From Candidatus Bathyarchaeota archaeon (GTDB lineage Archaea > Thermoproteota > Bathyarchaeia > Bathyarchaeales > Bathycorpusculaceae), in contig OY970340.1 of the NCBI GenBank assembly GCA_963717465.1, positions 1,664,001 to 1,728,000 on the forward strand: DNA of 64,000 bases, written 5' to 3'. Each line of letters starts with the position of its first letter. The stretch's first letter is position 1. The position numbers were made by a program, and so were the translations under genes. The notes below the pieces were generated by a model. That model was not told the DNA's origin. It saw nothing but the letters and a program-made list of their open reading frames with translations, and made no database searches. Positions 20,055 to 40,441 of this stretch are shown piece after piece.

Positions 20055-20229
20055 ACACGCAATTCACAAATCTCTAAACTTCGAAAATCTCATAATAGCT
20101 TAAATGCTCAAAGGTAATGCTTACTTTTTAAGTAAAAATCAAAACCCTGATTTCCATAAGATTTATGAATTCCAAAGAATCTGTTTCCCCTAAGCGTACA
20201 ATAACACGCTAACTGGAAAAGTGGGCTTT

Positions 20230-21481
20230 ATGAAGTACAAAACAATCTGCGAATCATGTCACGAAACACTCAAACCCCAAGTCGGCTTAAGCTCCACCTG
20301 CCCAAACGAATGCAGCTCACTTGCAAAGAACATCTTTACAACAGAAAAAATAACGCTTCGAGATTTGCCTGGGGTTTGGCGGTATCTGGATTGGCTTCCA
20401 GTTAACAAACCGTCAAGTTATGACGGCAAGAGTGTCACTTACAAAAGCAAAAAATTATCTAAGGAGCTTGGACTAAAAAACCTCTATGTGACGTTTACTG
20501 GTTACTGGCCTGAAATTGGTGCCCGTGTGAAGACTTGCACTTTTAAGGAGCTTGAAACTGCCGTCGGAATTCAATATGCCAAGGAGCAGGGTGCGTCTCA
20601 CTTAATCATTGCCTCGGCTGGGAGTACAGCCAACGCTTATGCCTATCTTGGCTCAATTGAAAAAATTAGCGTAGTCTTGGTGGTGCCTTCAAAGGTTGAA
20701 GATTGCCTTTGCGCGCCATTGGTTGATGGGAAATTCGTGAAAACCATTGCTGTGAAAGGGGAATATTCCGATGCTATTGCAGTTGCTCAAAGATTGGCTG
20801 GTTTGCCTAGTTTTGCTTATGATGCTGGAGGCAAAAGCCCTGTGAGAAGAGATGGGGCTGGCACGGTTATGCTTGAAGCCGTTGAAAAAATGAAGATTAT
20901 CCCTAGCCATTATTTTCAAGCGGTATCCAGCGGGGCAGGAGCAATAGCTGCTTTCGATGCGGTAGAAAGGCTTGCCAGAGATGGCAGGTTCGGTGCGTCA
21001 AAATTTAAACTTCACCTTTCCCAAAACGACCCGTTTATACCTGTTGTGAAAGCTTGGAAAGCAAAAAGGTGCATGATTGAAAAAACAGATGCGGAACCTG
21101 CGAATCCATTAGACGTCATTTACGCTAAGGTTCTCTCAAACAAGCAACCCTTATACGGGGTAAAAGGAGGCATGTTCGACGCTCTGCAGGCAACTTCTGG
21201 AGAAACGTATTCAGTGACAAATAAGCAAGCTCAAGATGCTCAAAAAATGTTCAGTCAACTGGAGGGAATCGATATTCATCCTGCAGCAGGAGTAGCGTTG
21301 GCTTCGTTAATTGATTCTGTTAATCAGGGAAAAGTAGGTTCAGAAGAAAACATCATGCTAAACATCACTGGCGGCGGATTTGAGCGAGCTTGAAAAGGAA
21401 CTTGGCACTCAGAAAATACCGTTCACCGCAAAAGTTGATAAGGATGCGTCGCTTGAGAAATTGAGGGATATTCTGCTTTGA
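20230..21481 (+). CDS. Cysteate synthase (ThrC-like PLP enzyme, CoM biosynthesis); frameshift near C-terminus (~21389)
   Basis: F.GYWPE.GA...TCTFKELE, ASAGST, RRDGAGTVM, YFQAVSSG, LHLSQN.PF, VLSN..P.Y, LNITGGG; adjacent to comDE. Confidence 0.88.
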
Positions 21482-22602
21482 ACGTCTTTGCAGAAATTTC
21501 TCAGATTCTTAAAGACTCAGGCGTAAACTTCTTCGCCATCCATCCATGCGAAAAAGTTGCCGGATTGTACAATTTAATCTCTAAAGATTTTAAGCATGTT
21601 TCTTTGGCAAAAGAAGAAGAAGGAGTAGGAATATGCGCAGGAGCATTTCTTGCAGGCGCAAAACCTGCAATGCTTATCCAAAGCTCAGGTCTTGGAAACA
21701 TGCCCAACGCGTTATGCTCTCTTACTCAAACTTACCAGATGCCCTTACTGGTTCTGGCAAGCTGGAGAGGCATATACCAAGAAGGTATCGTAGCCCAAAT
21801 TCCTCTTGGAAAAAGCATTCCCAAACTGCTTGAAGCAATCAACGTAAATTACACAATCATAGAAGACAGCGATAACCTCCCATTAATCGCCAATGCTGCA
21901 AACGAATGCTACCAACAAAATAAGGCGCATGTAGTTCTTTTAAGCCCTAAACTATCGGCTCAACAAGAAAAAATTCCTTATGACGCCACCTGCACAAACC
22001 GCAAACAGACAATTTCATTCAGAAAAACCACATTTGCTAAACCGGTTTTGACAAGATTCGAAATCTTACAGTGCATTGCTCCATTCCTCAAGGATAAAAT
22101 TGTGGTGTGCAATCTTGGCATTCCCAGCAAAGAATTGTATTCGATTTGTCATCAGAAATCAAACTTTTACATGCTTGGAAGCATGGGCTTAGCCTCATCA
22201 ATTGGACTTGGCTTATCATTGTTTACTCCAAAAGAAGTCGTTGTAATCGATGGGGATGGAAGCTTGCTAGCAAACCTTGGAACCCTCTCAACTATAGCCA
22301 AAGAGAAACCTAAGAACTTGACCATTATAGCAATTGATAACGGTGCTCACGGTTCAACCGGCAACCAGCCTACAGCAACAGCAAGCTGTGTGGACTTAGA
22401 AAAAGTAGCCCGAGCGTCAGGCTTTAAAAAAACCTGCAAAGAGGCAAACCCAAAACGACTGCTGCCTACCTTACAGAAAGTGGGTTCAGGACCGAATTTT
22501 GTACACTTACTTGCAAAACCTGGAAATTCCACTGTGCCAAACGTGCCCTTAACGCCAGAAGAAATAAAACGCAATGTGCAAGAGGCTATTTTGCGTGGAT
22601 AA
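21478..22602 (+). CDS. comDE: Sulfopyruvate decarboxylase, fused alpha/beta
   Basis: PCEK, EEEGVGICAG, QSSGLGN, NLGIPSKEL, NFYMLGSMG, DGDGS, DNGAHGSTGNQ. Confidence 0.9.
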   Translation: MNVFAEISQILKDSGVNFFAIHPCEKVAGLYNLISKDFKHVSLAKEEEGVGICAGAFLAGAKPAMLIQSSGLGNMPNALCSLTQTYQMPLLVLASWRGIYQEGIVAQIPLGKSIPKLLEAINVNYTIIEDSDNLPLIANAANECYQQNKAHVVLLSPKLSAQQEKIPYDATCTNRKQTISFRKTTFAKPVLTRFEILQCIAPFLKDKIVVCNLGIPSKELYSICHQKSNFYMLGSMGLASSIGLGLSLFTPKEVVVIDGDGSLLANLGTLSTIAKEKPKNLTIIAIDNGAHGSTGNQPTATASCVDLEKVARASGFKKTCKEANPKRLLPTLQKVGSGPNFVHLLAKPGNSTVPNVPLTPEEIKRNVQEAILRG

Positions 22603-23572
22603 GGTTCGAATTGGGCATTTAACAACTTCCTATCATACTGCTTTGATTATTATGGGAGCCGGCTGGGTTGAGAAAGAAATCGGCGTAAAACCTGAATGGC
22701 GACTGTTTCCAACTGGTCCTGAAATGATAAAAGCGTTTTCCAGAGACGAATTGGATATTGGCTATGTTGGGCTTCCTCCGGCAATGATTGGCATAACAAA
22801 AGGAATTCCACTAAAATGCATTGCAGGCGGGCATATGGAAGGCACCGTCATGACCGGTAAAGAAAACTTGAGATCGTATCAGGAAACAGGAAGCATCAAG
22901 AAAACTCTTGAGCAATTAAAAGGCAAAACCGTGGGGACACCGTCAAAAGGTTCAATCCACGATGTAATACTGCGTACCATTCTTGACGAGTCTAATCTTT
23001 CACAGAACGTATTAGTTAGAAATTTTGATTGGGCGGACATGATACTTGATGCGATGGAAAATGATGAGGTACAAGCCGCAGTTGGTACTCCTCCACTTGC
23101 AGTTTTAGCTTCCAAATCATTAGGTGCCAAAATAATACTTCCGCCTTCTGTGCTTTGGCCCCATAACCCAAGCTATGGAATCATAACGACAAAGACAATG
23201 ATTGATAATTCTACTGAAACGTTAAGAAAGTTTTTGATTTTACATGAAAAAGCATCTAATCTGATCAGAGAAGAGCCGCATAAAGCTGCCAAAATAGTCG
23301 CAAACACCGTTAAGCTCATGGATGAAGACTTTGTTTTCCAAGTTTACAAGGTTTCTCCGAAATATTGTGCGAGTCTTTCCCCAGAATACGTGCAGTCCAC
23401 GATGGCATTTGTTCCAGTCCTTCAAAGAATGCAATATATCAGCGGCAAGATAACTGAGGAGCAAGTTTTCTGCAAAGAATTAATTAAAAGAGTGCATACA
23501 GAGTCAGCCGCATTACGATTTCCCGTTAATGCTTGCCAAATGATTCTAGTCAAGCATTTTTCTCTGAATTAA
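22595..23572 (+). CDS. NitT/TauT (NMT1/THI5-like) substrate-binding-fold protein without signal peptide; possible C-terminal frameshift
   Basis: RIGHLTTSYHT, TGPEM, DIGYVGLPP, GSIHDVIL, SPKYCA; overlaps comDE stop. Confidence 0.75.
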   Translation: MDKVRIGHLTTSYHTALIIMGAGWVEKEIGVKPEWRLFPTGPEMIKAFSRDELDIGYVGLPPAMIGITKGIPLKCIAGGHMEGTVMTGKENLRSYQETGSIKKTLEQLKGKTVGTPSKGSIHDVILRTILDESNLSQNVLVRNFDWADMILDAMENDEVQAAVGTPPLAVLASKSLGAKIILPPSVLWPHNPSYGIITTKTMIDNSTETLRKFLILHEKASNLIREEPHKAAKIVANTVKLMDEDFVFQVYKVSPKYCASLSPEYVQSTMAFVPVLQRMQYISGKITEEQVFCKELIKRVHTESAALRFPVNACQMILVKHFSLN

Positions 23573-23601
23573 CGTAGTGCCCATAATCTGTTTTGCTATA
23601 A

Positions 23602-24162
23602 CTATCTTGAGATGTGTATGCTTCTAATTTCTGGTGATAGTTCAGCAAAGTCGTCATCGCCAACGTGAAATACTGGTTTAAACTTTGCAATGTTACAATT
23701 TGGTGAAAAAGCTCCTTTTGTTGTGTAGGCTGCTAAAACTTCACCAACTACAATTATGTGATCCCCAGCAGGAATCTTGTTCACTACTTTGCATTCCAGA
23801 TGAGCAAAGCATTCGTTTATGATTGGCGCTTTTACTTTCTTTGAAACGCCTGGTGTTAATTTTGATTCTTTAAATTTATCATGATTTCTTCCTGAAACTC
23901 TTCCACATAAAAGCGTCTCTTTGACAAAGTCCATGGATGGAACATTCACTACGAACTCTCCTGTTTCCTCAATCATTTTGGTAGAGCAATGGGTAGGTCT
24001 AAGACTGGCTGCCACTAGCGGCGGCACGTAAGAAACAGGCATTGACCAAGCGACAGTGACTATATCCGTTTTGCCCTCCTTATTGGCACATGATATGAGA
24101 ACAGTATGGCGAGGATGCAAAAGCCGACAGCTCATGCCAAGATCAAAATCCACTTTTTCCAT
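23602..24162 (-). CDS. Flavin reductase-like (flavoredoxin) protein
   Basis: VAWSMPVS..PP, GEFVVNVP, CG.VSGR..DKF, LECKV, GDH.I.VGEV. Confidence 0.85.
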   Translation of the reverse strand: MEKVDFDLGMSCRLLHPRHTVLISCANKEGKTDIVTVAWSMPVSYVPPLVAASLRPTHCSTKMIEETGEFVVNVPSMDFVKETLLCGRVSGRNHDKFKESKLTPGVSKKVKAPIINECFAHLECKVVNKIPAGDHIIVVGEVLAAYTTKGAFSPNCNIAKFKPVFHVGDDDFAELSPEIRSIHISR

Positions 24163-24374
24163 ATTCAACAAGCTAACCCTCAAACCTTAATTTTAATTAG
24201 CCATAAATAAAATTTGTTAAAAATTAGACCGTGAAAAGCAAGAATTACGTGCTTCTATTAAAGAAAAGGTTAGTTTCTTGTGCAACTAATGAAGGTTTTT
24301 TAAGTTGACTCTTTTTATTCATACCAAATTTCAAATTCGTCCAATCAAAAACCTCATAGTTGTGAAATTTAACA

Positions 24375-25200
24375 ATGACAAATGAATGGCGTCTTTTAGA
24401 TTCTGATCTTGTTGACCCAATAACTGGCGTCGCCACGGTTGAAGCCGTCGGAATAGCTAGATCAAAAAACTTGGTTCCGAATACAATAATTTTTTGGCGA
24501 CCGAAAACACGTTTTGTTTGTTTAGGTTACTTTCAGTACGTGAAAGATGAAGTTTACCCAGAAATATGCGAAAAACTCGGTGTAAAAATTGCTCGCAGAA
24601 TTCTCGGAGGCGGAATGGGTTACGTGGATCAAAACCAACTTTTGTACGATGTTGTAATGGGTTCAGAATACAAGGTAACTCCAGTCGCTTCTAGCATTGA
24701 ACGAATGTACAAGCACGTTTTAAGCGGAGTAATTCAAGGCTTAAGAGAACTCGGTTTCACAGATGTACTTCTAATGCCTGATTATAACTCTGCTATTTGG
24801 TTAAACGGCAAGAAAGTCTCTGGAAATTGTGCAACCAGCTTAACTGGAGCCCAAATAGTTGGCGGCAGTCTGCTTGTAGATTTCGATTTCGAAATGCTCG
24901 AAAAAGTCAGTAGAAATCCATACAAGAAGTCTCAAGTCAGGCATAACTTCACTTGAAGAAGGTTTAACATGTATTAACCGAGAAAGCAAAAAAAATGTCA
25001 GCTTAAAGAATGTAAAAGTTGCCGTTAAAACTGGCTTTGAAAAAGCTCTGAACATAAAATTGAAGCATGGAGCCCTAATCAAAGAAGAAGAAGATTTAAT
25101 CAATGAATTAGAGCCAAAGTTTTCTTCCAAAGAATGGACTTATCATATGGACATCAAGAGCCAAAAATTGATGCCGTACCCAGAAACTGGAGAGACATAA
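24375..25200 (+). CDS. lplA: Lipoate/octanoate-protein ligase catalytic domain (no accessory domain); frameshift ~24930
   Basis: WRLLD, LGYFQ, RRILGGGMGY.D, NGKKVSG; downstream frame continues to TAA at 25200. Confidence 0.82.
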
Positions 25201-25211
25201 TCTGACCAAAC

Positions 25212-26244
25212 TTGACAGAATTGCAAGAAAAAGCATTCAACGATGAAGCCATATCAAAAAATGAAGCAGACGTAATTTTACATCTTTCAGATGAACGGCA
25301 AATATCAGATTTAATCAAGCTCACAAGAGCCGTGTCTGATAAGCAAAATGGGAAAAGAATTAATTTTTACTATACAGGGAATTATTTTCCTGCATTATCT
25401 GTGACAGGCAGCAATTGTGCGCTTGCGATGTAAACACTGCGAAACCAAGCTCTTGCAGCAATTACCTGCAGCCCCAACGCCGCAAAAACTATGTTGAAAT
25501 GTGCTTAAAACTAAATGAAAAGGGTGCAAAAGGTGTTCTGATCACTGGCGGCTGCTCAAGTAATGGTAAGGTTCCTATCAGTAAATTTCTCGACGCTATA
25601 TCAGAAATTAAGAAGAAGACTAGTCTTATCGTTATAGCGCACACGGGAATTCTTGAAACAAAGGAAGCCAAGGAACTTGTTAATGCAGGATTGGATGGAG
25701 CAGCTGTAGACGTTGTTGGATTGCCTGAAACAATCAACTCCGTTTATTGCGCAGAATTCAAGCCAGAAGATTATGCTAATACTCTTAGAGCTCTTGGAAA
25801 CAGCTAAGATGCCAATAATATCTCCCCATGTTTGTGTAGGGCTCAATTTTGGCAGTCTCAAACATGAATTAGACTCATTAAGCATAATTGCAAAAATTAA
25901 ACCTACAACCGTCGTGATCACCGCTATTTTGCCTCTAAGAGGAACGCCCATGGAAAAAGTAAGAGTAGCAGCCTTTGATGTTGCCAAAGTTGTTATCGCT
26001 GCTAAACTAATGTTCCCCAATATTCCAATAACTCTAGGTTGTGCAAGATCAAAAGGTCCAGATAGAGAACATATAGAGAAACTTGCAATTCACGCAGGAG
26101 TAACTAACGTAGCCGTCCCCTCCGAATCAGCCATCAAAGAAGCAGAATCTATAGGGCTCAAAATTACTAGCTTATGGTGCTTGTTGTGCGGTTCCTCCGC
26201 TTGCTTCTCTTAAACTTGAAAAATGGAGAACTGTTGACGCATGA
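25212..26244 (+). CDS. lipS1: LipS1-type radical SAM lipoyl synthase, copy A (several frameshifts)
   Basis: SVTG..CAL.CKHC, LITGGC, HTG, PHVCVGL, LGCAR motif and terminal CC (YGACCAVP) after correction. Confidence 0.8.
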
Positions 26245-27254
26245 CTTCATCGCCAGTAGAAAAAATCCGGTTGTCAATTGGGACTGCAGTGATTTTAGGT
26301 CTTGAAATAGCTTTTATGAATAAGGATAATGCACCTACAACCGCCTACTTGCAGACTTATCATCCTGGCAGATGTGCAGCTAACTGCAAATTCTGTGCGC
26401 AGGCAAGAGATTCCGATGCGAAAGTTGACAAGATCGCCCGTGGATTGTACTTGCCCTACGATGCGGAGTTAGTAATTACTCGACTGAAAAAAGCAACTGA
26501 ACGCAAATTCATCAAAAGAATATGCATACAAACCATGAACTACCCTAAACTCATGGATGAACTACTCTGGCTCATCAAAAGGTTAAGCAGTGAAGTTTCA
26601 GCACCAATATCAGTATCAATTTACTCAATTTCACCCGAGAAAATCAGGCTTATAAAAGAAGCGGGCGCTCAAAAAATGATAATTCCATTGGATGCGGCGA
26701 ACGAAAAAATATTTGATGAAATTAAAGGCGCCAAAACTGCGGGTCCATACAGGTGGAAAAGCCACTTTTCAACCCTTGAAAATGCCCTTCAAATCATGGG
26801 CAAAGGAAACGTTGGAACACATCTAATGGTTGGCTTAGGCGAAACTGAAGAGGAAATAGTTAATTTGCTTGAAAAACTCGAAGAAATGGGCATCTACTGC
26901 GGACTTTTCGCTTTTACTCCCATCCCTGGAACTCAACTGGAAAAAATGGAGTCTCCTTCAATCGAGAGTTATCGCCGAATAAAACTCGCAAACTACTTAA
27001 TTTACAACAATTTAACCGAAGTCAACAAAATACGTTTTAATGAAACGGGAGAAATCGTTGATTTTGGAATAAAACAAGAAGAATTGGACAAAGCCATGGC
27101 GAAAGGTGAACCTTTCCTTACTTCAGGCTGCCCAGATTGCAACAGGCCGTTCGCAAACGAGGCTCCTGAAAAAACAATTTACAATTATCCCAATCTTCCA
27201 AAAAAAGTGGATCTTGGAAAAATCAAGAAACAGATAAAAAACAGTGGGATTTGA
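26241..27254 (+). CDS. lipS2: LipS2-type radical SAM lipoyl synthase
   Basis: IRLSIGTA, PTTAYL, CAANCKFCAQAR, HLMVGLGETE, FAFTP, TSGCPDCNRP. Confidence 0.88.
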   Translation: MTSSPVEKIRLSIGTAVILGLEIAFMNKDNAPTTAYLQTYHPGRCAANCKFCAQARDSDAKVDKIARGLYLPYDAELVITRLKKATERKFIKRICIQTMNYPKLMDELLWLIKRLSSEVSAPISVSIYSISPEKIRLIKEAGAQKMIIPLDAANEKIFDEIKGAKTAGPYRWKSHFSTLENALQIMGKGNVGTHLMVGLGETEEEIVNLLEKLEEMGIYCGLFAFTPIPGTQLEKMESPSIESYRRIKLANYLIYNNLTEVNKIRFNETGEIVDFGIKQEELDKAMAKGEPFLTSGCPDCNRPFANEAPEKTIYNYPNLPKKVDLGKIKKQIKNSGI

Positions 27255-27258
27255 AGAA

Positions 27259-28204
27259 ATGAGCCAAGAAGATTTTGTTCCAGTGGCTGGAGGTTTTGGA
27301 GTAAAAATCCATGCTCCAAGCGATGGCTGCATTGCATTCTGCAATAGTCCTTTCCCAGCGCACCGAGAATCCAGCGCTTTAGATATTTATCCAGCTGACG
27401 CAAAATTCGGAGATGAAGTTTCTTGTCCAGTAAACGGAATCGTCAAAGAGACACGGAAGTTTTCTTCACCCAATCTTTTTCCTGACAAGCCACCACTTGA
27501 TGAGTACTTGATTCTTATTGAGTCTGCTGATAATCCTGAGGTATACGTAAAAATCATTCATGCTCATCCGAAAGTTAGAAAAGGTGAAAAGGTTAACGTC
27601 GGGGATACTTTGGCGGTGTTAGTGCGCAGCGGTTACTGGGCTTATTCGGTTGACCCTCACATCCATGTGGAACTTCGCAATCCAAAAGATGCAATTAGAG
27701 CTTTAGGGTCCTATCCTCTGGAAGTATTAAACTCTCCAGAAAAAAAATGCGAAATAAGAGAACACGATAGAGAGTGATGTCTTAGGCGTTGTTGTTAAAG
27801 TGGAAAAGCGTTATGCAATTGTTCGCCCAAATCCTGAGAATTGGGTTAACAATCGGCAATTTTTCAGGTTTAGCAGCAAACTGTTGGAAACTGTGTTGGC
27901 ATTCTTGACGGAGGCTTACCATTTATGGGTTACGGAGGCGTTATAGGAACTGAAAAAGGCACGATTGCAGATGCTCCAGTAATCTTAAGTGGGAAAACTA
28001 TCGGAAGAATAACTACAAGCTTGGAGGGGCTGTCTAAATTTGAAACAGTTCCCTTCAAAGTCAAAGCAGGCACCTGTTCGGATGACTTGGGGATTTCTCT
28101 TAAGGTTTTTGTTGGGAAAACAACGAGAAATAAAACTTGTTCCAGCAAAAAACAATCAAATCAACGTTAAAGAGGACGATGTTGTAACAATAAAAAAGGA
28201 TTAA
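27259..28204 (+). CDS. M23/LytM-like metallopeptidase-fold protein (frameshifted)
   Basis: SPFPAH....ALDIY, PV.GIV, KIIHA.P.V.KGEKV.VGD.L, PHIHVE; C-terminal half split over several frames. Confidence 0.65.
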
Positions 28205-28256
28205 AATATGAATAAAACAATCAATGCACAACTTTCAGTTATTGGAGTGAATTTGT

Positions 28257-28704
28257 TTGGTTAAAATTGAAGGATTCAGTTTCCCGGAAAAACTCTATTA
28301 TAGCGAAGATCACCTTTGGATAAAACTTAAGGGAAATGAGGCGACAGTTGGCTTTACAAGTCTTGGAGAGGCCTTATGCAAAGAAATTGTGCATGTCGAT
28401 TTGCCTTTTGAAGGTGACGAAAAAAAGCAAGAGTGAAGAAATCGGTTCTTTCGAAAGCATTAAAGCAGTGTTTCGAATCCATGCGCCATTAAGCGGAAAA
28501 GTTACAAAAACAAACAATGACTTGTATCAGCAACCTGATTTGATAAACGAAGCTCCGTATGGAAAAGGTTGGTTATTTGTAATGGCTGCAACCGATCCGA
28601 AAGGTGAATTAAAGAAGCTAATGGATGCAAAAAAAGCAACTGCATACTACAAAGTTATTATCGATGAGGAACGAGCAAAATTCGGCGAGTACGATGAACC
28701 CTGA
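28257..28704 (+). CDS. gcvH: GcvH/LbpA-like lipoyl-carrier protein (frameshift ~28430)
   Basis: MVKIEGFSFPEKLYYSEDHLW, VGFT, ESIKA lipoyl-lysine motif, APLSGKV, PDLINEAPYGKGW. Confidence 0.88.
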
Positions 28705-28721
28705 ATACCTAAACTTTAGCT

Positions 28722-29752
28722 ATGGAGTTCTCTGAATTTTTGGAAAAGCAAGAATTAAATAATATTTTAGATAAGGCCCTTACCAGACCAATTACTGGCC
28801 AAGAAGCGCAAAAACTGTTATTGATTGATAAAGTTCAGCTTCCAGAATTATTATCGACATCACGGATTGTTTCAGACAAAAAAACCGACAAAACGCTGAC
28901 TGTTTATCACAAAGCGTTTCAACCCGTATCAATAACAGGACGAACTTGTGCTTTAAACTGTAAACATTGCAGTCAACATTATTTAGAGCACATGATTCCT
29001 GCAAGTAATCCTGAAAAACTGCTTACAAATCTGCAAGAATCTTAAGGCAAATCACGCGCCAGGTGTTCTTTTAAGTGGAGGTAGCAGAAAAGATGGAACC
29101 GTTCCATTAGACGAATTTGCGCATACAATAAGTTTGATCAAGAAAGAAACAGGCTTACTAATTTCTGCTCACACAGGTCCAATAAATTATGAAAATGCCA
29201 AAATCCTAGTTGAAGCCGGATTAGATATTGCTTTGCTTGATGTTGTAGGTTCAGCAGAAACCACAAAAAGCGTTTACGGCGTCAGTATAACTCCGGAGGA
29301 TTACCAAAAAACTTTAATGCTCTAAATGCTGCTGGTATCCCAAATATTTCTCCTCATATCTGTGTTGGGCTTCATTTTGGGAAACTTCTTGGAGAAGCAA
29401 AAGCTTTAGAGTTTAGTTTCACATGCCAAAGTGTCTACAATAGCCATAGTGGTGCTAATTCCAACAAAGGAAACGGCTATGGCTGAAGTTGATCCTTCTT
29501 CACCTGAGGACATAGCCAAAGTCATTGCAATCGCCAACTTGATGTTTCCAAAAACGCCTGTTTCGCTTGGTTGTGTGCGGCCTGGGAAAACTTTTCGTGC
29601 AAAGATTGATGAATTGGCAATCAAAGCTGGCATAGGAAAATTGGCGATTCCAACTGGAAATTCGCTTGAAGATTGCCCGAAGCGAAGGACTTAAAATTAA
29701 ATCTTTTGAGGATGTAATGTGCTGTTCAGTTGATGAATCTCAAATGAAATGA
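28722..29752 (+). CDS. lipS1: LipS1-type radical SAM lipoyl synthase, copy B (several frameshifts)
   Basis: SITGRTCALNCKHC, LLSGGS, HTG, PHICVGLHFG, LGCVRP, terminal MCCSV. Confidence 0.8.
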
Positions 29753-29869
29753 GTCTCTGCAACATTCTGATTTGAAATAGAGGAGTAGTGCCATCTTAAA
29801 CTAACTAAAAATTAAATATTTGGCTAATCAACCATTATAAAGCCTTAAAATCTGTTGAGTGTGTAATGC

Positions 29870-30926
29870 TTGGATAAATGGAGATTTATTGATTTAGACA
29901 CTACTGATCTTCCTTCTGTTCACGCTATAGAAGAAGCTATAGCTGAAGAAAAAATCGGAAATACACTATTACTATGGCGAGTAAACAAACCCGCTTTAAC
30001 GCATAGGCTATTTTCAGAACGTTTATGAGGAAATTGATGTTGAAAAAGCAAAAGAACTTGGCGTCCCATTTATAAGACGCATGGGCGGAGGCGGAACAGG
30101 TTATCTTACGCCAACTGTTTTAGCATATTCAATAATAGTCAGCGAAAAAAGCAATGTTATGCCTAAAAATGTTGAAGAAACATACGGTGTCATATGTAAC
30201 GGGGTGACGCTTGGTCTTAAGGAATTAGGGCTTGATGCAGTTCACGTGCCAATAAATGATGTTTTAATTGGCGGGAAAAAATTCTCTGGAAGTTCTCAGC
30301 ATAGAAGCTATGGAATGATTATCCAGCATGGATTCATAACTACAGAATTAGACCTTCCCACATTGGCCAAGTTGATTAAAGCTCCTAAAGAAAAGCTTCA
30401 GGATAAAGGCATAACCAAAATAGAAGATAGGATAACTTGGATTAACCGGGAAATTCAAAAAGCTGGAAGAGAACCGTTAAGTTTAGAGCAGATAAAGAAA
30501 GCGATTAGAACAGGATTTGAAAAAGCGCTTAAAGTCACTTTCCAGGATAGCAAACTTACGAAGCAGGAATTGGAAGCTGCAAAGAATTTTAAAGAAAGAT
30601 TTGAACTTGAAACATGGAACATCAATCCTAGACTATTCAAACGAGTCAACGCAGCATCAATTATTAAAGCACCTAAAGGCGTTATCAGAGTAAACGCGTA
30701 CGTTGCCAACGGTAAGATACTGGAGATAATGATAACCGGTGACTACATGATGCATCCTGTTGAAGCCATATCATCTCTTGAAGCTATGCTTACAGGAGCT
30801 AAAACTGATGAGCAAACAATACGAAAAATAGTGAATGAATTTTACGCTAAAGAGACAGTAATTACTCCTGGGGCTTCTCCGGATGATTTTGTAAAAGCAA
30901 TAATGAAGGCAAAGAAACCTTCCTGA
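29870..30926 (+). CDS. lplA: Lipoate-protein ligase with fused C-terminal accessory domain (Lpl(AB)); frameshift ~30000
   Basis: MDKWRFID, IGYFQ, RRMGGGGTGY, NDVLIGGKKFSG, C-term KAPKGVIRV...ITGDYMMHP. Confidence 0.85.
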
Positions 30927-31033
30927 ATTTTAAGAAGAACTTTAAAAATGATCATGCCTTTTATAAAAAAACTTTTAGAAGATACCTTAAAGACCTTTTT
31001 ACATAAAACTGTTAATTGGATGGGAGAAGCAAC

Positions 31034-33003
31034 ATGAATGAGAAACCCACGAATAGGCGTTTATATTTGTCACTGTGGCTTGAACATTGCTGCCACAGTT
31101 GATGTTAAATCAGTTGCAGAATATGCAAAGAATCTCCCTAATGTTGTTGTATCCAAAGATTACAAGTATACGTGTTCTGACCCTGGCCAGGAAATGATAA
31201 AGAAAGATATCAAAGAGCAAAAGCTTAACAGAATTATTGTTGCAGCTTGCTCTCCAAGGATGCATGAGCCTACTTATCGAAAGCTTTTGGAAGAATCAGG
31301 ATTAAACCCGTACTTGTTTGAAATGGTCAATATCCGAGAACAAGTTTCTTGGGTTCACATGAAGGATCCTGAAAAAGCCACTGAAAAAGCTAAAGACTTA
31401 ATCAGAATGGCAGTTGCTAAAGCTGCCTTATTGCAGCCTTTAGAAGAACAAGAAGTTCCTGTATTAAAATCGGTACTTATAATCGGCGGCGGTATTGCTG
31501 GTATTCAAGCAGCCCTTGATTTAGCTGATCAAGATTACAAAGTTACCTTAGTGGAAAAGAAGCCAACCCTCGGAGGTCATATGGCTCAGCTTGACAAGAC
31601 TTTCCCGACAATGGACTGCTCAATCTGTATTTTCGGTCCTAAAATGGTTGACGTCTACAAACACCCAAACGTTACACTTCTAGTTAACAGTGAAGTGCAA
31701 GATATCTCTGGTGCAGCGGGTAACTTCCATGCAAAAGTCTTGAAGAAAGCAAGATATGTTGACGAGAAGAAATGTGTCGGTTGCGGCGTATGCGCAACAA
31801 AATGTCCAATTAAGACTCCTAACGAGTTCGACAAGAATCTTGGTATGCGCAAAGCAATCTACATCCCATTCCCGCAAGGAGTTCCAGCTAAATACACGAT
31901 TGATAAAGAACACTGCTTGTTCTTCACTAAAGGCGTCTGTAAAGTTTGCGAGAAAATGTGTGAAGCCAAAGCAATCGACTATACTCAAGAAGACCAAGTT
32001 GTTGAATTCGATATTGGCGCGATTGTCGTTGCAACAGGCTATGATACTTTTGATCCCCAAATACAAAAAGAATGGGGCTACAAAAAGTATCCAAACGTTG
32101 TTAGCAAGCTTAGACTTAGAAAGATTGATTAGTGCTTTTGGTCCAAAGGAAGGCAAACTTGTACGTCCCTCAGACGGTAAAGAGCCTCATTCAATCGGCT
32201 TTGTCCAATGCGTAGGTTCAAGGGATGAACGAGTAGGAAATCCATACTGTTCAAACATTTGTTGCATGGCAACAATCAAGCAAGCCGTCCTTCTAAAAGA
32301 GAAGCACCCCGAATTCGAAATTTACGTCTTCTATAATGACATTAGAGCTTTCGGTAAAGGCTTTGAAGAATTTTACAACAGAGCACGGGCGAACTTTATA
32401 ACTTTCATAAAAGGCATACCTTCTGAACTGTCAGAAGACCCATCAACACACAACATCAACTTAAGAAGCGCTGACATGGTTCTTGGAAAAACAGTCGAAT
32501 TAGACCTTGACATGGTAGTTCTCGCAGTCGGTATGGTTCCGCCAAAAGATCTCGCTGAATTAGCAAGCAAACTCAGAATTCCGAGAGGCGCAGACGGATT
32601 CTTACTTGAAAGCCACCCGAAACTTAAACCTGTTGATGCACCAACTACTGGAATATTCCTTGCTGGCGCCGTTCAAGGACCAAAAGATATTCCGGCAACA
32701 GTTGCCCAGGCAAAAGCGGCTGCTTCAAGTGTGGCATCCCTGTTATCTAAAGGGAAAATTAAGGCAGAGACGAACATAGCAAACGTTAACGAAGAAAAAT
32801 GCTTAGGTTGCGGCCTCTGCGAATTAGTTTGTCCCTATAAGGCTGTACGAGTTGAGGTTACTCCAAAGGGAAGAAAAGCTAAGGTAATATCCTCGTCATG
32901 TAAAGGATGCGGAACATGCGCCGCCACCTGCAGGTGTGGAGCTATAGACATCAAAGGCGTTACAGATCAGCAAATAAACTCTATGATAGTTGCGTTAAGG
33001 TGA
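31034..33003 (+). CDS. hdrA: Heterodisulfide reductase subunit A, copy 1 (frameshifts ~31046 and ~32105)
   Basis: GVYICHCGLNI, AACSPRMHE, GGGIAG, KTFPTMDCSIC, QCVGSRD...YCSNICC, ferredoxin motifs. Confidence 0.93.
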
Positions 33004-33010
33004 ATATGAA

Positions 33011-33440
33011 ATGACTGAAGACTGAAAAGAACTGGGAACCAAAAATCTTAGCTTTCTTATGCAACTGGTGTAGTTATGCTGGAGCAGACCTTGCAGGAAT
33101 AAGCAGGATGCAGTATTCCCCTAACATTAGAGTAATCCGAGTTCCATGCTCAGGAAGAGTTAACCCATACTTCATAATAAAAGCCCTGCAAACCGGATGG
33201 GATGGAGTCCTGGTTTCTGGTTGCCACCCAGGCGACTGCCATTATATAAGCGGAAACCTTGCAGCAAGAAGAAGATTCGCTGTCCTGAAAGACTTGCTCG
33301 AATACATTGGAATCGAGCCTGGGCGGGTAAACTTTTCGTGGGTTTCAGCCTCTGAAGGTGACAAATTCGCTAAGGTTGTAAATGAAGTAGTAGAAACAGT
33401 GAAGGAGTTAGGGCCTCCTAATAAACTGGTGAAGAAGTGA
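33011..33440 (+). CDS. flxD: MvhD/FlxD-type [2Fe-2S] subunit (apparent indel near start)
   Basis: WEPKILAFLCNWCSYAGADLAG, PCSGRV, GCHPGDCHY. Confidence 0.88.
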
Positions 33441-33445
33441 TACTT

Positions 33446-34396
33446 ATGGCAGACATTGAGAATTCGATAAAAGAAACTGCTGAAAAGCTTCTTAACGAGA
33501 AAAAAGTTGACGTAATAATCGGATATGAAAAGGGAACCTTGCCTCTCCGTACGACTCCTTGCTTTGTGGACAAAGCTGGAGACGTTAAGAAACTGGTTTG
33601 GAACCCAAGCTGCGATGCCAACCTTGCAAAATACGTAGTGGGCAGAAAGGGAAAAGTAGGCATCATCGCAAAGGGTTGTGACGCGCGGCTAATAACGGTT
33701 TGTGAAATAGAAAACCAGATTCCAAAAGAAAACGTGGTTGTAATAGGCGTCCCTTGCGTAGGAGTTATTGATAGGAAAAAGATAGAAGAGAAACTTGAAG
33801 GTAAAGAAGTTCTCGAAAGCACGATTGAGGGCGACCAAATCAAGGTTAAGGGTGAAGGTTTCGAGGTTTATTTGCCATTAAAAGAGTTTCTCTCTGACTC
33901 ATGTATAACTTGCAAGCATAGAAACGCACCCATCTGCGATGTGTTTGTTGGAGAAAAAAGTCCGGAAAATGCAGAGGTAGACCAGTTCGCTGAAGTTTCT
34001 AAGCTCGAAGCAAAGTCACCAGATGAAAGATGGAAACATTTCGAAGAGGATCTAAGCAAATGCATCAGATGCTACGCTTGCCGGAATGTTTGTCCTCTCT
34101 GCTACTGCAAAACATGCGTGGTCGACCAGAATATGCCTGCTTGGATTGGCAAAACGAATGATCCCTCAGACACGATGATCTATCACATAGCCCGAGCTTT
34201 ACACGGCGCTGGAAGATGCGTTGACTGCGGAGCCTGCACTCGAGCTTGTCCCATGGGCATTAACCTCAGTGAACTCATGAAGAAAGCTGAAAAAATCATG
34301 AAAGAACGATACGGCTTTGAAGCGGGAGTAAGCCAAGATAAAGTTCCTCCGTTGGGAGAGAACAAACCGGATGATTCCCAAGAATTCATCAAGTAA
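33446..34396 (+). CDS. flxC: FlxC/FdhB-like 4Fe-4S protein
   Basis: IGYEKG, KGCD.R, CIRCYACRNVCPLCYCKTC, AGRCVDCGACTRACP. Confidence 0.8.
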   Translation: MADIENSIKETAEKLLNEKKVDVIIGYEKGTLPLRTTPCFVDKAGDVKKLVWNPSCDANLAKYVVGRKGKVGIIAKGCDARLITVCEIENQIPKENVVVIGVPCVGVIDRKKIEEKLEGKEVLESTIEGDQIKVKGEGFEVYLPLKEFLSDSCITCKHRNAPICDVFVGEKSPENAEVDQFAEVSKLEAKSPDERWKHFEEDLSKCIRCYACRNVCPLCYCKTCVVDQNMPAWIGKTNDPSDTMIYHIARALHGAGRCVDCGACTRACPMGINLSELMKKAEKIMKERYGFEAGVSQDKVPPLGENKPDDSQEFIK

Positions 34397-34397
34397 A

Positions 34398-35433
34398 ATG
34401 GAGGCAGCAAAGTTGAAAGTAATAGAAAAAAGCAAAATGCCTGATTTCGTTAACGGTCTAATCAAAGAATATGAGGTTTTCGCGCCAGTCAAGGACAAAA
34501 ACATAGTATCCTTCGGAAAAATCTCCTCTGAAAATCAAGTCTACCTAAATGCTCCAAACACGAAGAAGCCTGTTAAAGAGGTTTTCCTTCCGCAAACCGA
34601 GACACTTTTCACCTACAAAGTGGACGGTAAAAACGCGGAGGTAGTACCATCTCCAACTGTGAATGGAAAACGAGTAGTACTAGGTGTTCGTCCTTGCGAT
34701 GCTAGAAGCTTAGTAATGATGGACAAATTTTTTGGTGGGGGATACCAAGACGTTTACTTCTTAGATAAGAGAAAGAACACGACCGTGATCGGATTAGCCT
34801 GCAATCATCCTCTGAGCACTTGCTTCTGCACTTCAGTTGGAGGAAATCCGTCAGCAAAGGAGGGTATGGATTTACTCCTTCACGACGTAGACGGTAAATA
34901 CTTGGTAGAACCAGTCACTCAAAAAGGAGAAGAAGTCATCAAAAAGTTTCCATGGCTTGCCGATGCTGAAAAAGCAGACGAGGAAAAGGCAAAGCAGCTA
35001 GCTGAAGACGCTGAAAAAGCAATAACCTCTAAGGTTTTAGCTAAAGATGTAAACGTTAAGCTCTGCAAAATGTTCGATGATCCAATATGGGACCAGATAT
35101 ATCAGAAGTGCTTAGGCTGCGGAATCTGCGCTTTCCTTTGTCCCACCTGCACCTGCTTTGACGTTGTAGACGAAGGAGCACAGCATGAAGGAAAAAGAGT
35201 CAGAATTTGGGATTGCTGTCAATTTGGCTGCTTTACACAGGAAGGTTCTGGACATAATCCTCGCCCCTCAGGAAAGGAGAGAACGAGACAAAGAATCATG
35301 CACAAATTCGAACTATTGCGTTGATAATTACGGCGAAGGCTTCTGCGTAGGCTGTGGAAGATGCGTTCGTGAATGTCCAGTTAATCTTGACATCAGAGAA
35401 GTAATTGGCGCAATTAATCAGAAGGGTAAGTGA
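34398..35433 (+). CDS. flxB: FlxB/AsrA-like 4Fe-4S protein (frameshift ~35310)
   Basis: GVRPCD, CFCTS, CLGCGICAFLCPTCTCF, R.WDCC, RQRIMHKF, CVGCGRCVRECP. Confidence 0.82.
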
Positions 35434-35438
35434 GAAGA

Positions 35439-36277
35439 ATGAGTAATCCATATATTCCAAATCTTGCAGTCATCAAGAAAATCACAAGCGAAAACGACAG
35501 TTAACGACATAAAAACCTTTGACCTTGCTTTTAAAGACCCTGAGGCGATGAAGAATTTCAATTATACATGTGGTCAGTTCGCAGAAATCTCTGTCTTCGG
35601 AGCTGGAGAGTGCCCGATAGGCATAGCTTCATCACCCATGGACAAAGATTGCATCCAATTCACCGTGAAAAAAGTAGGCGTTGTCACGTCGACCTTGCAC
35701 AACAGCGACGAAGGAACCGTCGTTGGAGTCAGAGGACCTTTTGGCAATGGATTTCCAATGTCAAAATTAGAAGACCATAATCTCGTTATTATCGGGGGAG
35801 GATTCGCTTTCTCTACTTTGAGATCTCTAACAAAATTTGCTCTTCATGAAGAAAACAGAGACAAATTCAAAGACTTAACTATTATCTATGGAGCCCGCAA
35901 TCCTGGTGAACTTAATTCAAATATGACCTTGACGAATGGGCAAAAAGAAAAGACATCAGCCTTTCGTTACTGTTGACGCTGGAACTCCCAGCTGGACGGG
36001 GCTTGTTGGTTTAATTCCAAACATTGTCAAGCAAGTTGCCCCATCCTCAAAGAATTCAGTCGCCATCATTTGTGGTCCACCAGTAATGATAAAGTTCACT
36101 ATGCCTGTAATTCGCGACCTTGGCTTCTCCCCAGAAGATGTCTACTTATCCCTTGAAATGAGGATGAAGTGCGGCATTGGAAAGTGTGGAAGATGCAACA
36201 TAGGGAGCAAGTTCGTGTGTAAAGATGGTCCCGTATTCTCAAGCAAAGAGCTTGAGTCGATGACAAAAGAGTACTAA
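35439..36277 (+). CDS. flxA: FlxA/AsrB-like FAD/NAD(P)H-binding subunit (two frameshifts)
   Basis: GQFAEIS..G.GE.PI, RGPFGNGF, IGGG, YGAR, CGPPVM, EMRMKCGIGKCGRC...CKDGPVF. Confidence 0.85.
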
Positions 36278-36309: not shown

Positions 36310-36840
36310 ATGCAAGAACAAAAAAGCGTAAAATTCGACCCAAAGTTCAAGTATGAAGTTGCAGCTATGCCTGGCGGCGAAAGCGTAAAATTCTGCTTTC
36401 AATGCGGCAAATGTGAAGCAACTTGCCCAATTAGGCGCTTCAAAGATCAGTATCGACCAGCACAAGTCATAAGAGCAATTATGGTTGGAGATCGCGAGGC
36501 AGCTTTAAACAGTCAAACCATTTGGTTATGCGCAACATGCTATTCATGCAGTGAACATTGCCCTCAGGGAGTACATTTCACTGATATAATGCAAGTTATC
36601 CGAAACATAGCTGTTGCTCAAGGAAAAACTAACCCGACTTACCAAAAAATCGCTGATGTTATTCTTGCTAACGGAAAAATCTTTGACTCCGTTGACTTCA
36701 TTAATGAAATGCGTTCTGATCTTGGGCTTCCACCAGTAACGACATTGAACAAAGAGGAAATGAAAAAAATGCTTAGTGACGCAAAAGAAGTTCATAAGAA
36801 ACATGAAAGTGAAGCAGCATGCAAAGAAAGAAAAAAGTGA
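36310..36840 (+). CDS. hdrC: Heterodisulfide reductase subunit C
   Basis: CFQCGKCEATCP; IWLCATCYSCSEHCPQGV. Confidence 0.92.
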   Translation: MQEQKSVKFDPKFKYEVAAMPGGESVKFCFQCGKCEATCPIRRFKDQYRPAQVIRAIMVGDREAALNSQTIWLCATCYSCSEHCPQGVHFTDIMQVIRNIAVAQGKTNPTYQKIADVILANGKIFDSVDFINEMRSDLGLPPVTTLNKEEMKKMLSDAKEVHKKHESEAACKERKK

Positions 36841-36859
36841 GCATCACTAGGTGATTTTA

Positions 36860-37738
36860 ATGAAGTATTTGTTTTATCAAGGTTGTACAACTCCGCAAAA
36901 AGAAAACGGGTATGAAGTATCAATGAGAAAAATCGCTTCCAAATTAGATATCGAGCTTGTTCCGCTTGAAGAACAAAACTGTTGCGGCTTCTTTGTTAAC
37001 CCAGTTGACCACTTTAGCTCGATGATAATGGCCGCACGAAACTTGGCGCTTTTTGATGCTGCTGGACTTGACGCTATTACTCCTTGCCCGGCATGCTTTG
37101 GTCATCTTACTAAAGTGAGAAACGAGCTTTTGGCCGACAAAAAATTGGCAGATGAAGTTAACGAAATCCTGCAAAAATACGGAAAGAAATTCACTGGCGT
37201 TCAAAAAATTAAACATTTAGTAAACGTGCTCATCGACGAAGTTGGCATGGAAAAAATCAAAGCATCAATAACAAGGCCGTTAACTAACTTAAGGGTTGCA
37301 CCTCACTATGGCTGTCACGTGCTCAAGCCATCTTACGAGGTAAATACTGATGATCCAGAAGATCCTGAATTGCTTGATTCCTTGGTTGCAGTAACAGGAG
37401 CTAAAGTTGTTGAATATAGCGAGAAGAAACTCTGTTGCGGTTCAACAGTTGCAAATGCCGACGAAGCTCTCTCTATTCAAATGACCAAAACTAAACTAGA
37501 GAGTGTGCGCAAGGCTGGAGCAGATGCAATTGTAACACTCTGTCCGGCATGTCATATGCAACTAGACCTTGTGGCAGGTGCAAAGCTTCGTGAAATCAGC
37601 CTTCCAGTACTGCATTATACTCAATTGCTTGGGCTTGCTCAAGGATTTAGTGCAGAAGAACTTGCATTCGGCGAAAACCGCATTGATACAGAAAGAGTCG
37701 TTGAAATAGCGTTATCGCCCGCCAGTAGTCTCTGCTGA
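36860..37738 (+). CDS. hdrB: Heterodisulfide reductase subunit B
   Basis: Two CCG domains: GC..CCG..CPAC and HYGCH..CCG..CPAC. Confidence 0.92.
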   Translation: MKYLFYQGCTTPQKENGYEVSMRKIASKLDIELVPLEEQNCCGFFVNPVDHFSSMIMAARNLALFDAAGLDAITPCPACFGHLTKVRNELLADKKLADEVNEILQKYGKKFTGVQKIKHLVNVLIDEVGMEKIKASITRPLTNLRVAPHYGCHVLKPSYEVNTDDPEDPELLDSLVAVTGAKVVEYSEKKLCCGSTVANADEALSIQMTKTKLESVRKAGADAIVTLCPACHMQLDLVAGAKLREISLPVLHYTQLLGLAQGFSAEELAFGENRIDTERVVEIALSPASSLC

Positions 37739-37987
37739 AAAAAAGTAGGTAAAGACATAGAAGACGATACTTCACTTGTAGATATTGATTCATCATTGTA
37801 CGTCTTCTCACTTATTTGTTTACAAATTTCTGCTCGAATGCCTAAAATTTAAGCCTGAGTAAATTGTAAATTTGAGCAGTATGAAACTTGTCCCTATGCC
37901 CTTGTAAATTATATTACATACAATAAATATTTATAAGGAAGATTTTTCGTCTAAAGATGCAACTGCATGCAGTGGATAGGAGAAAGT

Positions 37988-39994: not shown

Positions 39995-39996
39995 AA

Positions 39997-40437
39997 ATGT
40001 CGACTGAAACTTTTGAGCCTAAAATTGTAGGTTTCCTTTGTAACTGGTGTAGCTACGCAGGTGCAGACTTAGCTGGAATCAGCAGAATGCAATATCCAAC
40101 AAACGTGCGAGTTATCCGCGTTATGTGTAGCGGAAGAGTTGATCCTGGTTTTGTTCTTGAAGCCTTCAAAAGTGGAGCTGACGCTGTTCTAATCGCTGGT
40201 TGCCACTTGCCTTCAGACTGCCACTACATCGGAGGTAATTTCAAAGCTAACCGAAGAATAGCGCTTCTAAGACAAGTATTAACCGGATTTGGCATTGAAC
40301 CTGAACGGCTTAGACTTGAATGGATATCTGCATCTGAAGGGGACCAGTTCGCAAAAACAATAAAAGAATTAACTGAACAAATACGAAAACTTGGTCCGAG
40401 TCCTTTGAAAAATGGGGTAAAGGAAAAGGTGAATTAA
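39997..40437 (+). CDS. mvhD: F420-non-reducing hydrogenase subunit D
   Basis: FEPKIVGFLCNWCSYAGAD, MCSGRV, GCH..DCHY. Confidence 0.94.
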   Translation: MSTETFEPKIVGFLCNWCSYAGADLAGISRMQYPTNVRVIRVMCSGRVDPGFVLEAFKSGADAVLIAGCHLPSDCHYIGGNFKANRRIALLRQVLTGFGIEPERLRLEWISASEGDQFAKTIKELTEQIRKLGPSPLKNGVKEKVN

Positions 40438-40441
40438 GAAA

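Follow-up and report, generated by a model that had tools for sequence, protein, structure and literature searches.

A lipoylation module in a bathyarchaeal genome and its candidate partners, heterodisulfide reductase and corrinoid methyltransferases

What purpose is served by a set of lipoylation genes lying between the genes for coenzyme M (CoM) synthesis and those for heterodisulfide reductase (Hdr) in an archaeon that possesses methyl-coenzyme M reductase (MCR)? The question is raised by a 64,000-nucleotide stretch of DNA from Candidatus Bathyarchaeota archaeon (G000:C1:1664001-1728000; hereafter the window), in which seven genes at 24375-30926 specify ligase-family, LipS1, LipS2 and M23-like proteins together with a GcvH-like lipoyl carrier. 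The genome, G000, is a single contig of 3.05 Mb and is 88% complete; five-digit coordinates refer to the window, and positions in kb (such as 1647.5 kb) to the G000 genome. In a preliminary description the module was assigned to a methanogenic HdrABC/MCR cycle, its carrier supplementing or replacing coenzyme B (CoB). We find that the module is real, that in all probability it is independent of MCR, and that a partnership with Hdr is plausible, joined by a hitherto unreported link to corrinoid methyltransferases.

The module genes and their distribution

The genes have the order, strand and identities originally given for them, and are listed below with family scores taken on the intact orthologues of genome G135.

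24375..25200, plus strand: LplA-family catalytic domain without LplB (PF21948; alignment of five orthologues); one frameshift, near 24930
25206..26217, plus strand: LipS1 copy a, radical SAM protein for sulfur insertion at C6 (orthologue NF053742, 225 bits against a cutoff of 230); four frameshifts
26241..27254, plus strand: LipS2, for sulfur insertion at C8 (orthologue NF053743, 312 bits against a cutoff of 270); intact, no frameshift
27244..28204, plus strand: DUF8155 / M23-like protein (PF01551 weak, under cutoff); four frameshifts
28251..28704, plus strand: GcvH-like lipoyl carrier of the module clade, FESIKAV (PF01597; lysine codon 28462-28464); one frameshift, near 28434
28722..29752, plus strand: LipS1 copy b (orthologue NF053742, 256 bits against a cutoff of 230); four frameshifts
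29867..30926, plus strand: Lpl(AB) lipoate/octanoate:protein ligase with ND..K motif and fused LplB (PF21948 and PF10437); one frameshift, near 30005

The first gene product keeps the lysine of the GKKxSG motif; the aspartate of the ND motif of ATP-dependent ligases is replaced by alanine in 5/5 orthologues, the Asp of T. acidophilum LplA aligning to this Ala, and there is no LplB domain. In lipoate ligases the ND aspartate binds Mg-ATP. Since it is missing here, the protein is not an ATP-dependent lipoate ligase of the usual kind and may instead be an octanoyl/lipoyl transferase with a LipM/LipL-like role. The product of the last gene has both ligase domains and the ND..K motif. The two LipS1 copies, which are 43% identical to each other in G135, retain CxxxCxxC, GCxR and a terminal CC in the orthologue alignment, and LipS2 of G000 is 73% identical to its orthologues in G135 and G085. 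The radical SAM and auxiliary-cluster cysteines of LipS1 and LipS2 are kept as in the enzymes of Neti et al. 2022 (PMC9585515; this and the other published work is cited from the accessible portions of each paper).

The fourth gene is a candidate for a zinc amidase that would remove or recycle the acyl arm. Its recognition score against DUF8155 in the atlas was 2271, under the mark of 2300; His35, Asp42 (spacing HxxxxxxD), His101 and His134-x-His136 are invariant in 29/29 homologues, and a single-sequence fold model had a predicted local distance difference test (pLDDT) value of 30. Homologues of this M23-like protein were found in 112 of 401 Bathyarchaeia, and at 13 of 28 loci a lip gene is no more than 1.5 kb away. 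It is highly likely that the module functions in lipoylation, and the original designation as a LipS1/LipS2-Lpl lipoylation unit with an orphan carrier is upheld. A scan for sigma-70 promoters and terminators, a model ill-suited to archaea, remained at chance level.

A carrier of the module type was found in five of 332 genomes of the family: G000, G135 (94% complete), G085 (100%), G514 (79%) and G582 (85%), the last two apparently being the records also labelled G488 and G489. In the four relatives none of the seven genes is broken; three of these genomes have the gene order of G000, and in the fourth the genes form two divergent halves. Among the 120 genomes of the genus the 73% LipS2 orthologue, the N-terminal half of the M23-like protein and H-proteins with the sequence ES[RI]KYTG are each restricted to G000, G135 and G085.

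The distribution of the MCR genes is quite different. Of the genus genomes only G000 possesses mcrA, which was seen once more among 61 wider relatives, and it is absent from all four other module genomes; comDE was not found in these four either, in a search without a positive control, and among the five only G000 has a cysteate synthase and a TIGR03288 HdrB that pass their cutoffs. With mcrA in just one of five module genomes, and the module retained by relatives which have no mcr, the proposed MCR link is refuted. The mcr/CoM block of G000 occupies the place which in its relatives is taken by a methyltransferase cassette, so that nearness to mcr is an arrangement of one genome. The same relatives keep the module linked to hdr, which speaks for the other half of the proposal. 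The immediate upstream neighbours are:

20221..24183, mixed strands: cysteate synthase, fused comDE, SsuA-like binding protein and opposite-strand flavin-reductase-like gene (context, outside the module)

The module is therefore in the region described, after cysteate synthase and comDE, and yet not immediately after them. Because the SsuA-like gene and the flavin-reductase-like gene (23602-24183, on the strand opposite to the module) intervene, it is not a co-oriented read-through from the CoM genes.

The MCR of G000 is of the canonical type, its McrG being nearest to methanogen enzymes and most distant from ethyl-CoM reductase among 20 PDB matches. It is accompanied by mmp and A2 genes, cysteate synthase and comDE, while a cfb (F430) cluster is situated elsewhere, at 1566-1571 kb (L209). 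The region G000:C1 1644001-1708000 (L015 and window 1-24200) is the sole canonical-type MCR cluster in the 120 genus genomes and contains mmp genes, CoM synthesis, three MtaA-like genes, an MtrH-like gene and its own HdrABC; it is probably more notable than the lipoylation module itself. Directly after mcrA (window 3270-4298) is a BioB/PylB-like radical SAM gene scoring under every family cutoff. A second mmp5/mmp15/DUF2102-like set, with an SCP2 gene, is located far from mcr (L019:8853-11537), and an identical SCP2 copy is present at 2310 kb.

Lipoyl carriers and methyltransferase cassettes

G000 has nine GcvH-like genes where most genomes of the genus have one. The lipoyl lysine is present in 12/12 aligned H-proteins, which fall into three groups: module H (support 100/99), methyltransferase-linked H (100/99) and housekeeping H. 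This tree, like that of HdrB below, was built without characterised GcvH, LbpA or methanogen HdrB sequences. The carrier had at first been left between GcvH and LbpA; the module H-protein proves to be neither an LbpA nor the housekeeping GcvH of the genus. The module H of G135 scored 117.2 against the NF002270 cutoff of 117, and with TIGR00527 it fell under the cutoff (103 against 115.85). LbpA proteins have two conserved cysteines near their termini, with some archaeal exceptions (PMC6067878); the eleven carriers inspected here have none or one. The carriers also differ in the charge surrounding the lysine, which is acidic (-2) in module H, as judged from the orthologues, and in housekeeping H, and basic (+4 to +6) in five of the six cassette H-proteins of G000 and in one from G135. 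In bacteria surface charge sorts carriers between ligases (bioRxiv 10.64898/2026.10.01.755906).

Classical clients of lipoylation are scarce. As first reported, no gcvP, gcvT, E1, E2 or E3 gene is recognizable in the window. Elsewhere in G000, at its 88% completeness, gcvP and gcvT were not found either, and gcvP is present in none of the 120 genus genomes; a role of the carrier in glycine cleavage is therefore not supported. The other enzyme looked for, the E3-like lpd product, is encoded outside the window and exceeds the NF004947 cutoff. As a marker of the module we rejected it since it is a housekeeping gene, present in 108 of 120 genus genomes. The sole E1 match is a transketolase. A stand-alone E2 catalytic domain, devoid of a lipoyl domain, was likewise discarded as a client, being found in seven of 120 genus genomes and absent from G135 and G085.

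The H-proteins are associated with MT430, a protein of 420-450 amino acids belonging to no curated family, which is part of a TrmB-corrinoid-MT430-H-SCP2 cassette. In G135, G085 and G488 it lies 0.3-0.4 kb from the catalytic-only lplA gene; in G489 roughly 9 kb separate the cassette from the module. The distances of the nearest MT430 gene in the four relatives are 0.3, 0.3, 0.4 and approximately 9 kb. The cassettes of G000 lie away from the module; all five module genomes possess MT430-corrinoid-H cassettes. Of the nine H genes of G000, six have an MT430-family gene within 3 kb (against 0 of 20000 random draws), and each of the eight MT430 genes has an H gene at a distance of 6.2 kb or less; by comparison only three of nine MttB-like genes lie within 10 kb of an H gene. 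In metagenomes MT430 and a corrinoid gene accompany the cassette H clade at five of 11 loci, some of them near-duplicates and most on short contigs. At E<1e-60 MT430 is restricted within the genus to G000, G135, G085 and G137.

Searches of PDB sequences with MT430 found nothing. Its structural model (pLDDT 91) has the URO-D/MtaA fold, with MtaA as best match (4ay7; E 2.5e-10; template-modelling scores 0.62/0.76). Cys202 and Cys267, both on the active-site face, and Asp268 are invariant.

Several further observations concern these carriers and cassettes. A second complete lipoylation cluster (L007:6189-11451; G000 737-742 kb), with the order H-osmC-lipS2-lipS1-lpl(AB)-DUF116-FAD oxidoreductase, the last possibly lipT-like, is situated about 3 kb from MttB-like and corrinoid genes. 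A genus-wide LipS2 paralogue (L019:5806-8191, G000 2610.8-2613.2 kb; L029-L055) adjoins an isopropylmalate/homocitrate-synthase-like gene at 27/27 loci, a pairing which could hint at 2-oxoacid chain elongation as the source of octanoyl. Housekeeping GcvH stands beside a pyridine-nucleotide disulfide reductase gene at 24/27 loci (L069-L095); one of these reductases, when scanned, was CoA-disulfide-reductase-like.

A distant MT430 paralogue has in-frame UGA at both conserved cysteine positions and is located near a PSTK-SelB fusion and an hdrCB pair (L020:10990-12228, L021:3366-5585). Genes for a MoxR-like AAA ATPase, a NifH-NifD fusion and a NifK-like protein recur near the module or cassettes in G135, G085, G000 and one metagenome contig (L061:3726-9686, L157, L199), the Nif-like products representing a nitrogenase-like reductase distinct from CfbCD. 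Divergent thermosome-like genes are repeatedly found beside methyltransferase cassettes (L061:9870-11633, L011:3925-5892, L020:7200-8828). In total G000 contains seven hdrB genes, nine MttB-like and six MtmB-like paralogues, and >20 corrinoid-protein matches.

The neighbouring heterodisulfide reductase

Downstream of the module are:

31038..36277, plus strand: hdrA duplicate, mvhD and three Flx/Asr-like genes (hdrA 87% identical to the second hdrA over the N-terminal half; not seen at this position in any of the four relatives)
36310..42879, plus strand: hdrC-hdrB-hdrA-mvhD-mvhG-mvhA, with HdrB (36851-37738) in the module-linked, non-canonical clade
43070..43672, plus strand: protein without an assigned family, the orthologue of which directly follows the last module gene in all four relatives (from gene order in the relatives)

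On the strength of its position the last of these is probably an eighth member of the module. The first hdrA starts 111 bp after the last module stop (30926 to 31038), in agreement with the approximately 110 bp first noted, and the linkage is conserved: hdrA follows the module by 0.1-1.4 kb in four of the five genomes, and in the remaining one the distance is about 20 kb. Its cluster always includes hdrC, hdrB and mvh genes. The arrangement is hdrC-hdrB-hdrA-mvhDGA or hdrA-hdrC-hdrB-mvhDGA, not the hdrC1B1A-hyp-hdrC2B2 set of sulfur-oxidizing systems.

The canonical HdrB of G000 is encoded at 1647.5 kb, some 17 kb before the window and beyond the mcr operon. It scores 439 bits against the cutoff of 345 and keeps Arg14, Gly46, Gly198, Arg201 and Phe233, which are CoM/CoB contacts in PDB 5ODR (PMC13261682); Arg240 is absent, as in PDB 8rvu. 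The suggestion that the carrier replaces CoB is not supported, given this separate canonical enzyme, which like cysteate synthase is confined to G000 among the five genomes.

The module-linked HdrB (36851-37738) is another matter. With 259 bits it is well under the TIGR03288 cutoff of 345 for CoB-CoM HdrB; it has Lys14 and Ala233 (Phe233 being lost), no Arg201, and neither the PAPG nor the GGGVR loop. All ten cluster cysteines (C9, C41, C42, C76, C79, C152, C192, C193, C228 and C231) are invariant, giving the two five-cysteine sets for non-cubane clusters that typify HdrB/CCG proteins. Proteins 56-73% identical to it occur within the genus only in G000, G135 and G085; the matches found in 108 of 120 genus genomes are mostly to the housekeeping HdrB, at 41-45%. 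The seven sequences of the module type form one group (SH-aLRT 99; quick tree, no bootstrap). Co-folding of the module-clade HdrB (24-row alignment) with module H (22 rows) gave a score of 0.00, which is no verdict and was counted neither way. That this HdrB acts on a protein-bound lipoyl group we put at slightly under an even chance.

A possible relay and its alternatives

We propose a dedicated, MCR-independent lipoylation relay, whose carriers would act as thiol/disulfide partner both for an HdrABC-Mvh that does without CoB and for corrinoid methyltransferases; the whole chain, read from sequence, is perhaps equally likely to be right or wrong. Its lipoyl arm is probably a protein-bound thiol partner for Hdr and for B12 methyl-transfer enzymes, and not a part of the methane pathway. 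Lpl(AB), using ATP, would load octanoate onto the acidic H-protein of the module, and by the chemistry of the family LipS2 would insert sulfur at C8 followed by LipS1 at C6, the order observed in T. kodakarensis (PMC9585515). The catalytic-only LplA may then hand the arm from module H to the basic-faced ES[RI]KYTG H-proteins of the cassettes, where the second LipS1 may complete it, and recycling of the arm may fall to the M23-like protein. MT430 would have as its thiol partner the lipoyl dithiol of these carriers. The disulfide could be reduced by the module-clade HdrABC with H2 (MvhDGA) or, in G000, NADH (Flx-like genes), with ferredoxin probably being reduced through electron bifurcation by HdrABC. 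We consider it likely that the module supplies the cassette carriers. That the lipoyl sulfur itself takes or gives the methyl group, i.e., direct S-methylation, is doubtful.

A number of points weigh against this relay. The evidence is genomic throughout, with lipoylation, binding and turnover predicted, and no dithiol-oxidising step appears in the chain as drawn. The zinc site of MtaA is an H-x-C...C motif; MT430 is without it, and thiol methylation is therefore not implied by the fold. The five genomes belong to one family and are not independent, so that co-occurrence could reflect a single transferred island, and G137 (64% complete) has MT430 and no match to the module. The other ligase and LipS genes of G000 (those of the second complete cluster, at 738-742 kb, together with isolated genes: two lplA, one lipS1 and one lipS2) could load the cassette carriers, one of which (L021) is not basic (-1), and the E3-like enzyme could re-reduce lipoyl without Hdr. 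Since the housekeeping HdrB of the genus is also without the CoB residues, the module clade is not alone in having lost them. Lastly, the module in G000 may be decaying: its 6.5 kb contain 15 frameshifts, the rate elsewhere being 0.39 per kb by a cruder count.

Going further than the relay, one can envisage a methyl-thioether cycle that runs on protein-bound lipoate and needs neither MCR nor CoM. Corrinoid/MT430 pairs would move methyl (or alkyl) groups to and from the lipoyl sulfur of their own H-protein and a bifurcating HdrABC-Mvh would regenerate the dithiol; one tethered cofactor would fill the roles of both CoM and CoB, true MCR having been added later in G000. We regard this cycle as somewhat unlikely.

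Slightly less likely still is a simpler arrangement, whereby the module lipoylates only its own H-protein and this protein provides the disulfide on which the neighbouring non-canonical Hdr acts, as a redox shuttle between E3/NAD and Hdr/ferredoxin; the cassettes would then be passengers on the island, loaded by other ligases. The separate clade of module H, the proximity of hdrA (within 1.4 kb after the module in four of five genomes) and the presence of an E3-like gene are all consistent with such a shuttle, and the same idea has been published for Culexarchaeia (PMC9723716). It leaves unexplained, however, the ligase-family gene without the ATP-site aspartate, the second LipS1 and the co-occurrence with MT430 cassettes in 5/5 genomes.

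Decay of the module in G000 following the gain of MCR, whatever its role in the relatives, is compatible with the other readings and is itself rather improbable. Alignment of intact G135 proteins to the window revealed the 15 single-base frameshifts in six of the seven genes, and the nearby mmp, cysteate synthase, hdrC/B/A and mvh genes are whole. But 14 of the 15 are +1 insertions (the remaining one is a deletion) and there are no in-frame stops; moreover, mcrA and mcrB are likewise split, and a cruder count gave 24 shifts in 61 kb elsewhere, with 16/52 genes affected. The insertion bias, the lack of stops and the frameshifts elsewhere fit long-read assembly error, which is likely the cause.

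The H-proteins might also be acyl carriers, loaded with some hydrophobic substrate or with a mercapto-acyl arm of non-standard type: SCP2 would deliver the acid and the ligase tether it, the two LipS1 and MT430 would modify it, and the product would not be ordinary lipoate, with Hdr loosely coupled. The SCP2 genes found with most cassettes, the divergence of the two LipS1 (43% identity), an M23-like amidase able to release a small product and the MT430 cysteine set, unlike that of MtaA, would all suit this scheme. Nevertheless LipS1 and LipS2 match the lipoyl-synthase models with their auxiliary-cluster cysteines kept, and M23-like genes adjoin ordinary lip genes at 13 of 28 other Bathyarchaeia loci; we judge it improbable.

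A role of the lipoylated carrier in the methanogenic cycle, supplementing or replacing CoB, appears very improbable. It would explain why the module, in a canonical MCR cluster, has the CoM genes on one side and hdrA on the other, and the sole mvhGA of the usual type of the genus follow the module-linked hdr. Furthermore, no dedicated AksD, AksE or AksF exceeded its cutoff among the 17 proteins scanned, so that CoB synthesis is not proven, though homocitrate-synthase-like candidates exist. Against this stand the four module genomes without mcrA, comDE, cysteate synthase or canonical HdrB, and the separate HdrB of G000 with its five contact residues. The channel of MCR, moreover, admits CoB as a small molecule and could not admit a protein-tethered arm. 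The notion that the mercapto-acyl moiety of CoB is built on the module's carrier, LipS2 thiolating the terminal carbon of heptanoyl and the M23-like protein releasing it, agrees with the action of LipS2 on a terminal carbon (PMC9585515) and with the unrecognised Aks set among the proteins scanned, but is most improbable given the lack of MCR and CoM genes in four module genomes and the two LipS1 copies, which imply a dithiol rather than a monothiol.

The proposed relay can be set beside several known systems. With the sLpl(AB)-LipS1-LipS2 pathway (Tanabe et al. 2023, PMC10332631; Neti et al. 2022, PMC9585515) it shares the ligase, LipS2, LipS1 and conserved cluster cysteines; Lpl/LipS1/S2 genes have been reported from 17% of archaeal genomes (PMC10332631). 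The module differs in having two LipS1, the ligase-family gene lacking the ATP-site aspartate, the DUF8155/M23-like gene and a resident carrier, and in having no lipT. It is established that sulfur oxidisers pair Hdr-like enzymes with lipoyl carriers; their sHdr-LbpA system (Cao et al. 2018, PMC6067878) likewise clusters Hdr-family genes with GcvH-like carriers and their own lipoylation genes, with several types of carrier in a genome, a basic surface being found on some of them. Here, by contrast, hdrABC and mvhDGA replace hdrC1B1A-hyp-C2B2, the carriers are without the two LbpA cysteines, and the partners are corrinoid methyltransferases, sulfur transferases not having been recognised beside the module.

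The Ehe cluster of Culexarchaeia, which are also non-methanogenic Thermoproteota, contains GcvH, HdrB and HdrA2B2C2, and its orphan GcvH beside HdrB has been proposed as a disulfide carrier for HdrB (Kohtz et al. 2022, PMC9723716). That cluster encodes a membrane hydrogenase, whereas the present locus has a soluble Mvh, a full lipoylation unit and a second carrier family tied to methyltransferases. In the Bacillus subtilis LipM-GcvH-LipL relay (PMC10332631, PMC6067878) GcvH is likewise an assembly platform from which a single-domain LplA-family enzyme moves the arm to clients, as may be the case here; the module uses LipS1/S2 instead of LipA, shows no conserved LipL-type cysteine, and its clients would be other H-proteins and not E2 subunits. 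MT430 shares the fold of the methylcobamide:CoM methyltransferase MtaA (PDB 4ay7) at 15% identity and with a different cysteine set. Compared with methanogen HdrABC-MvhADG (PDB 5odc), the module Hdr keeps the ten cluster cysteines and the Mvh partners, while its HdrB is without Arg201, Phe233 and two substrate loops. Four of the five module genomes are without CoM genes. A literature search (subscription journals not covered) turned up no publication in which lipoyl carriers, corrinoid methyltransferases and Hdr are brought together.

Many non-methanogenic archaea carry HdrABC-Mvh without a known disulfide substrate. The locus described here is a compact set inherited together in five genomes, consisting of a lipoylation module, two carrier clades, an HdrB clade without CoB contacts and corrinoid methyltransferases. 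One false lead is removed, in that the module is not part of MCR methanogenesis. If the proposed relay is correct, lipoate would gain a new role, pairing with B12 methyl transfer as well as with bifurcating Hdr, and orphan Hdr enzymes would have a named substrate.

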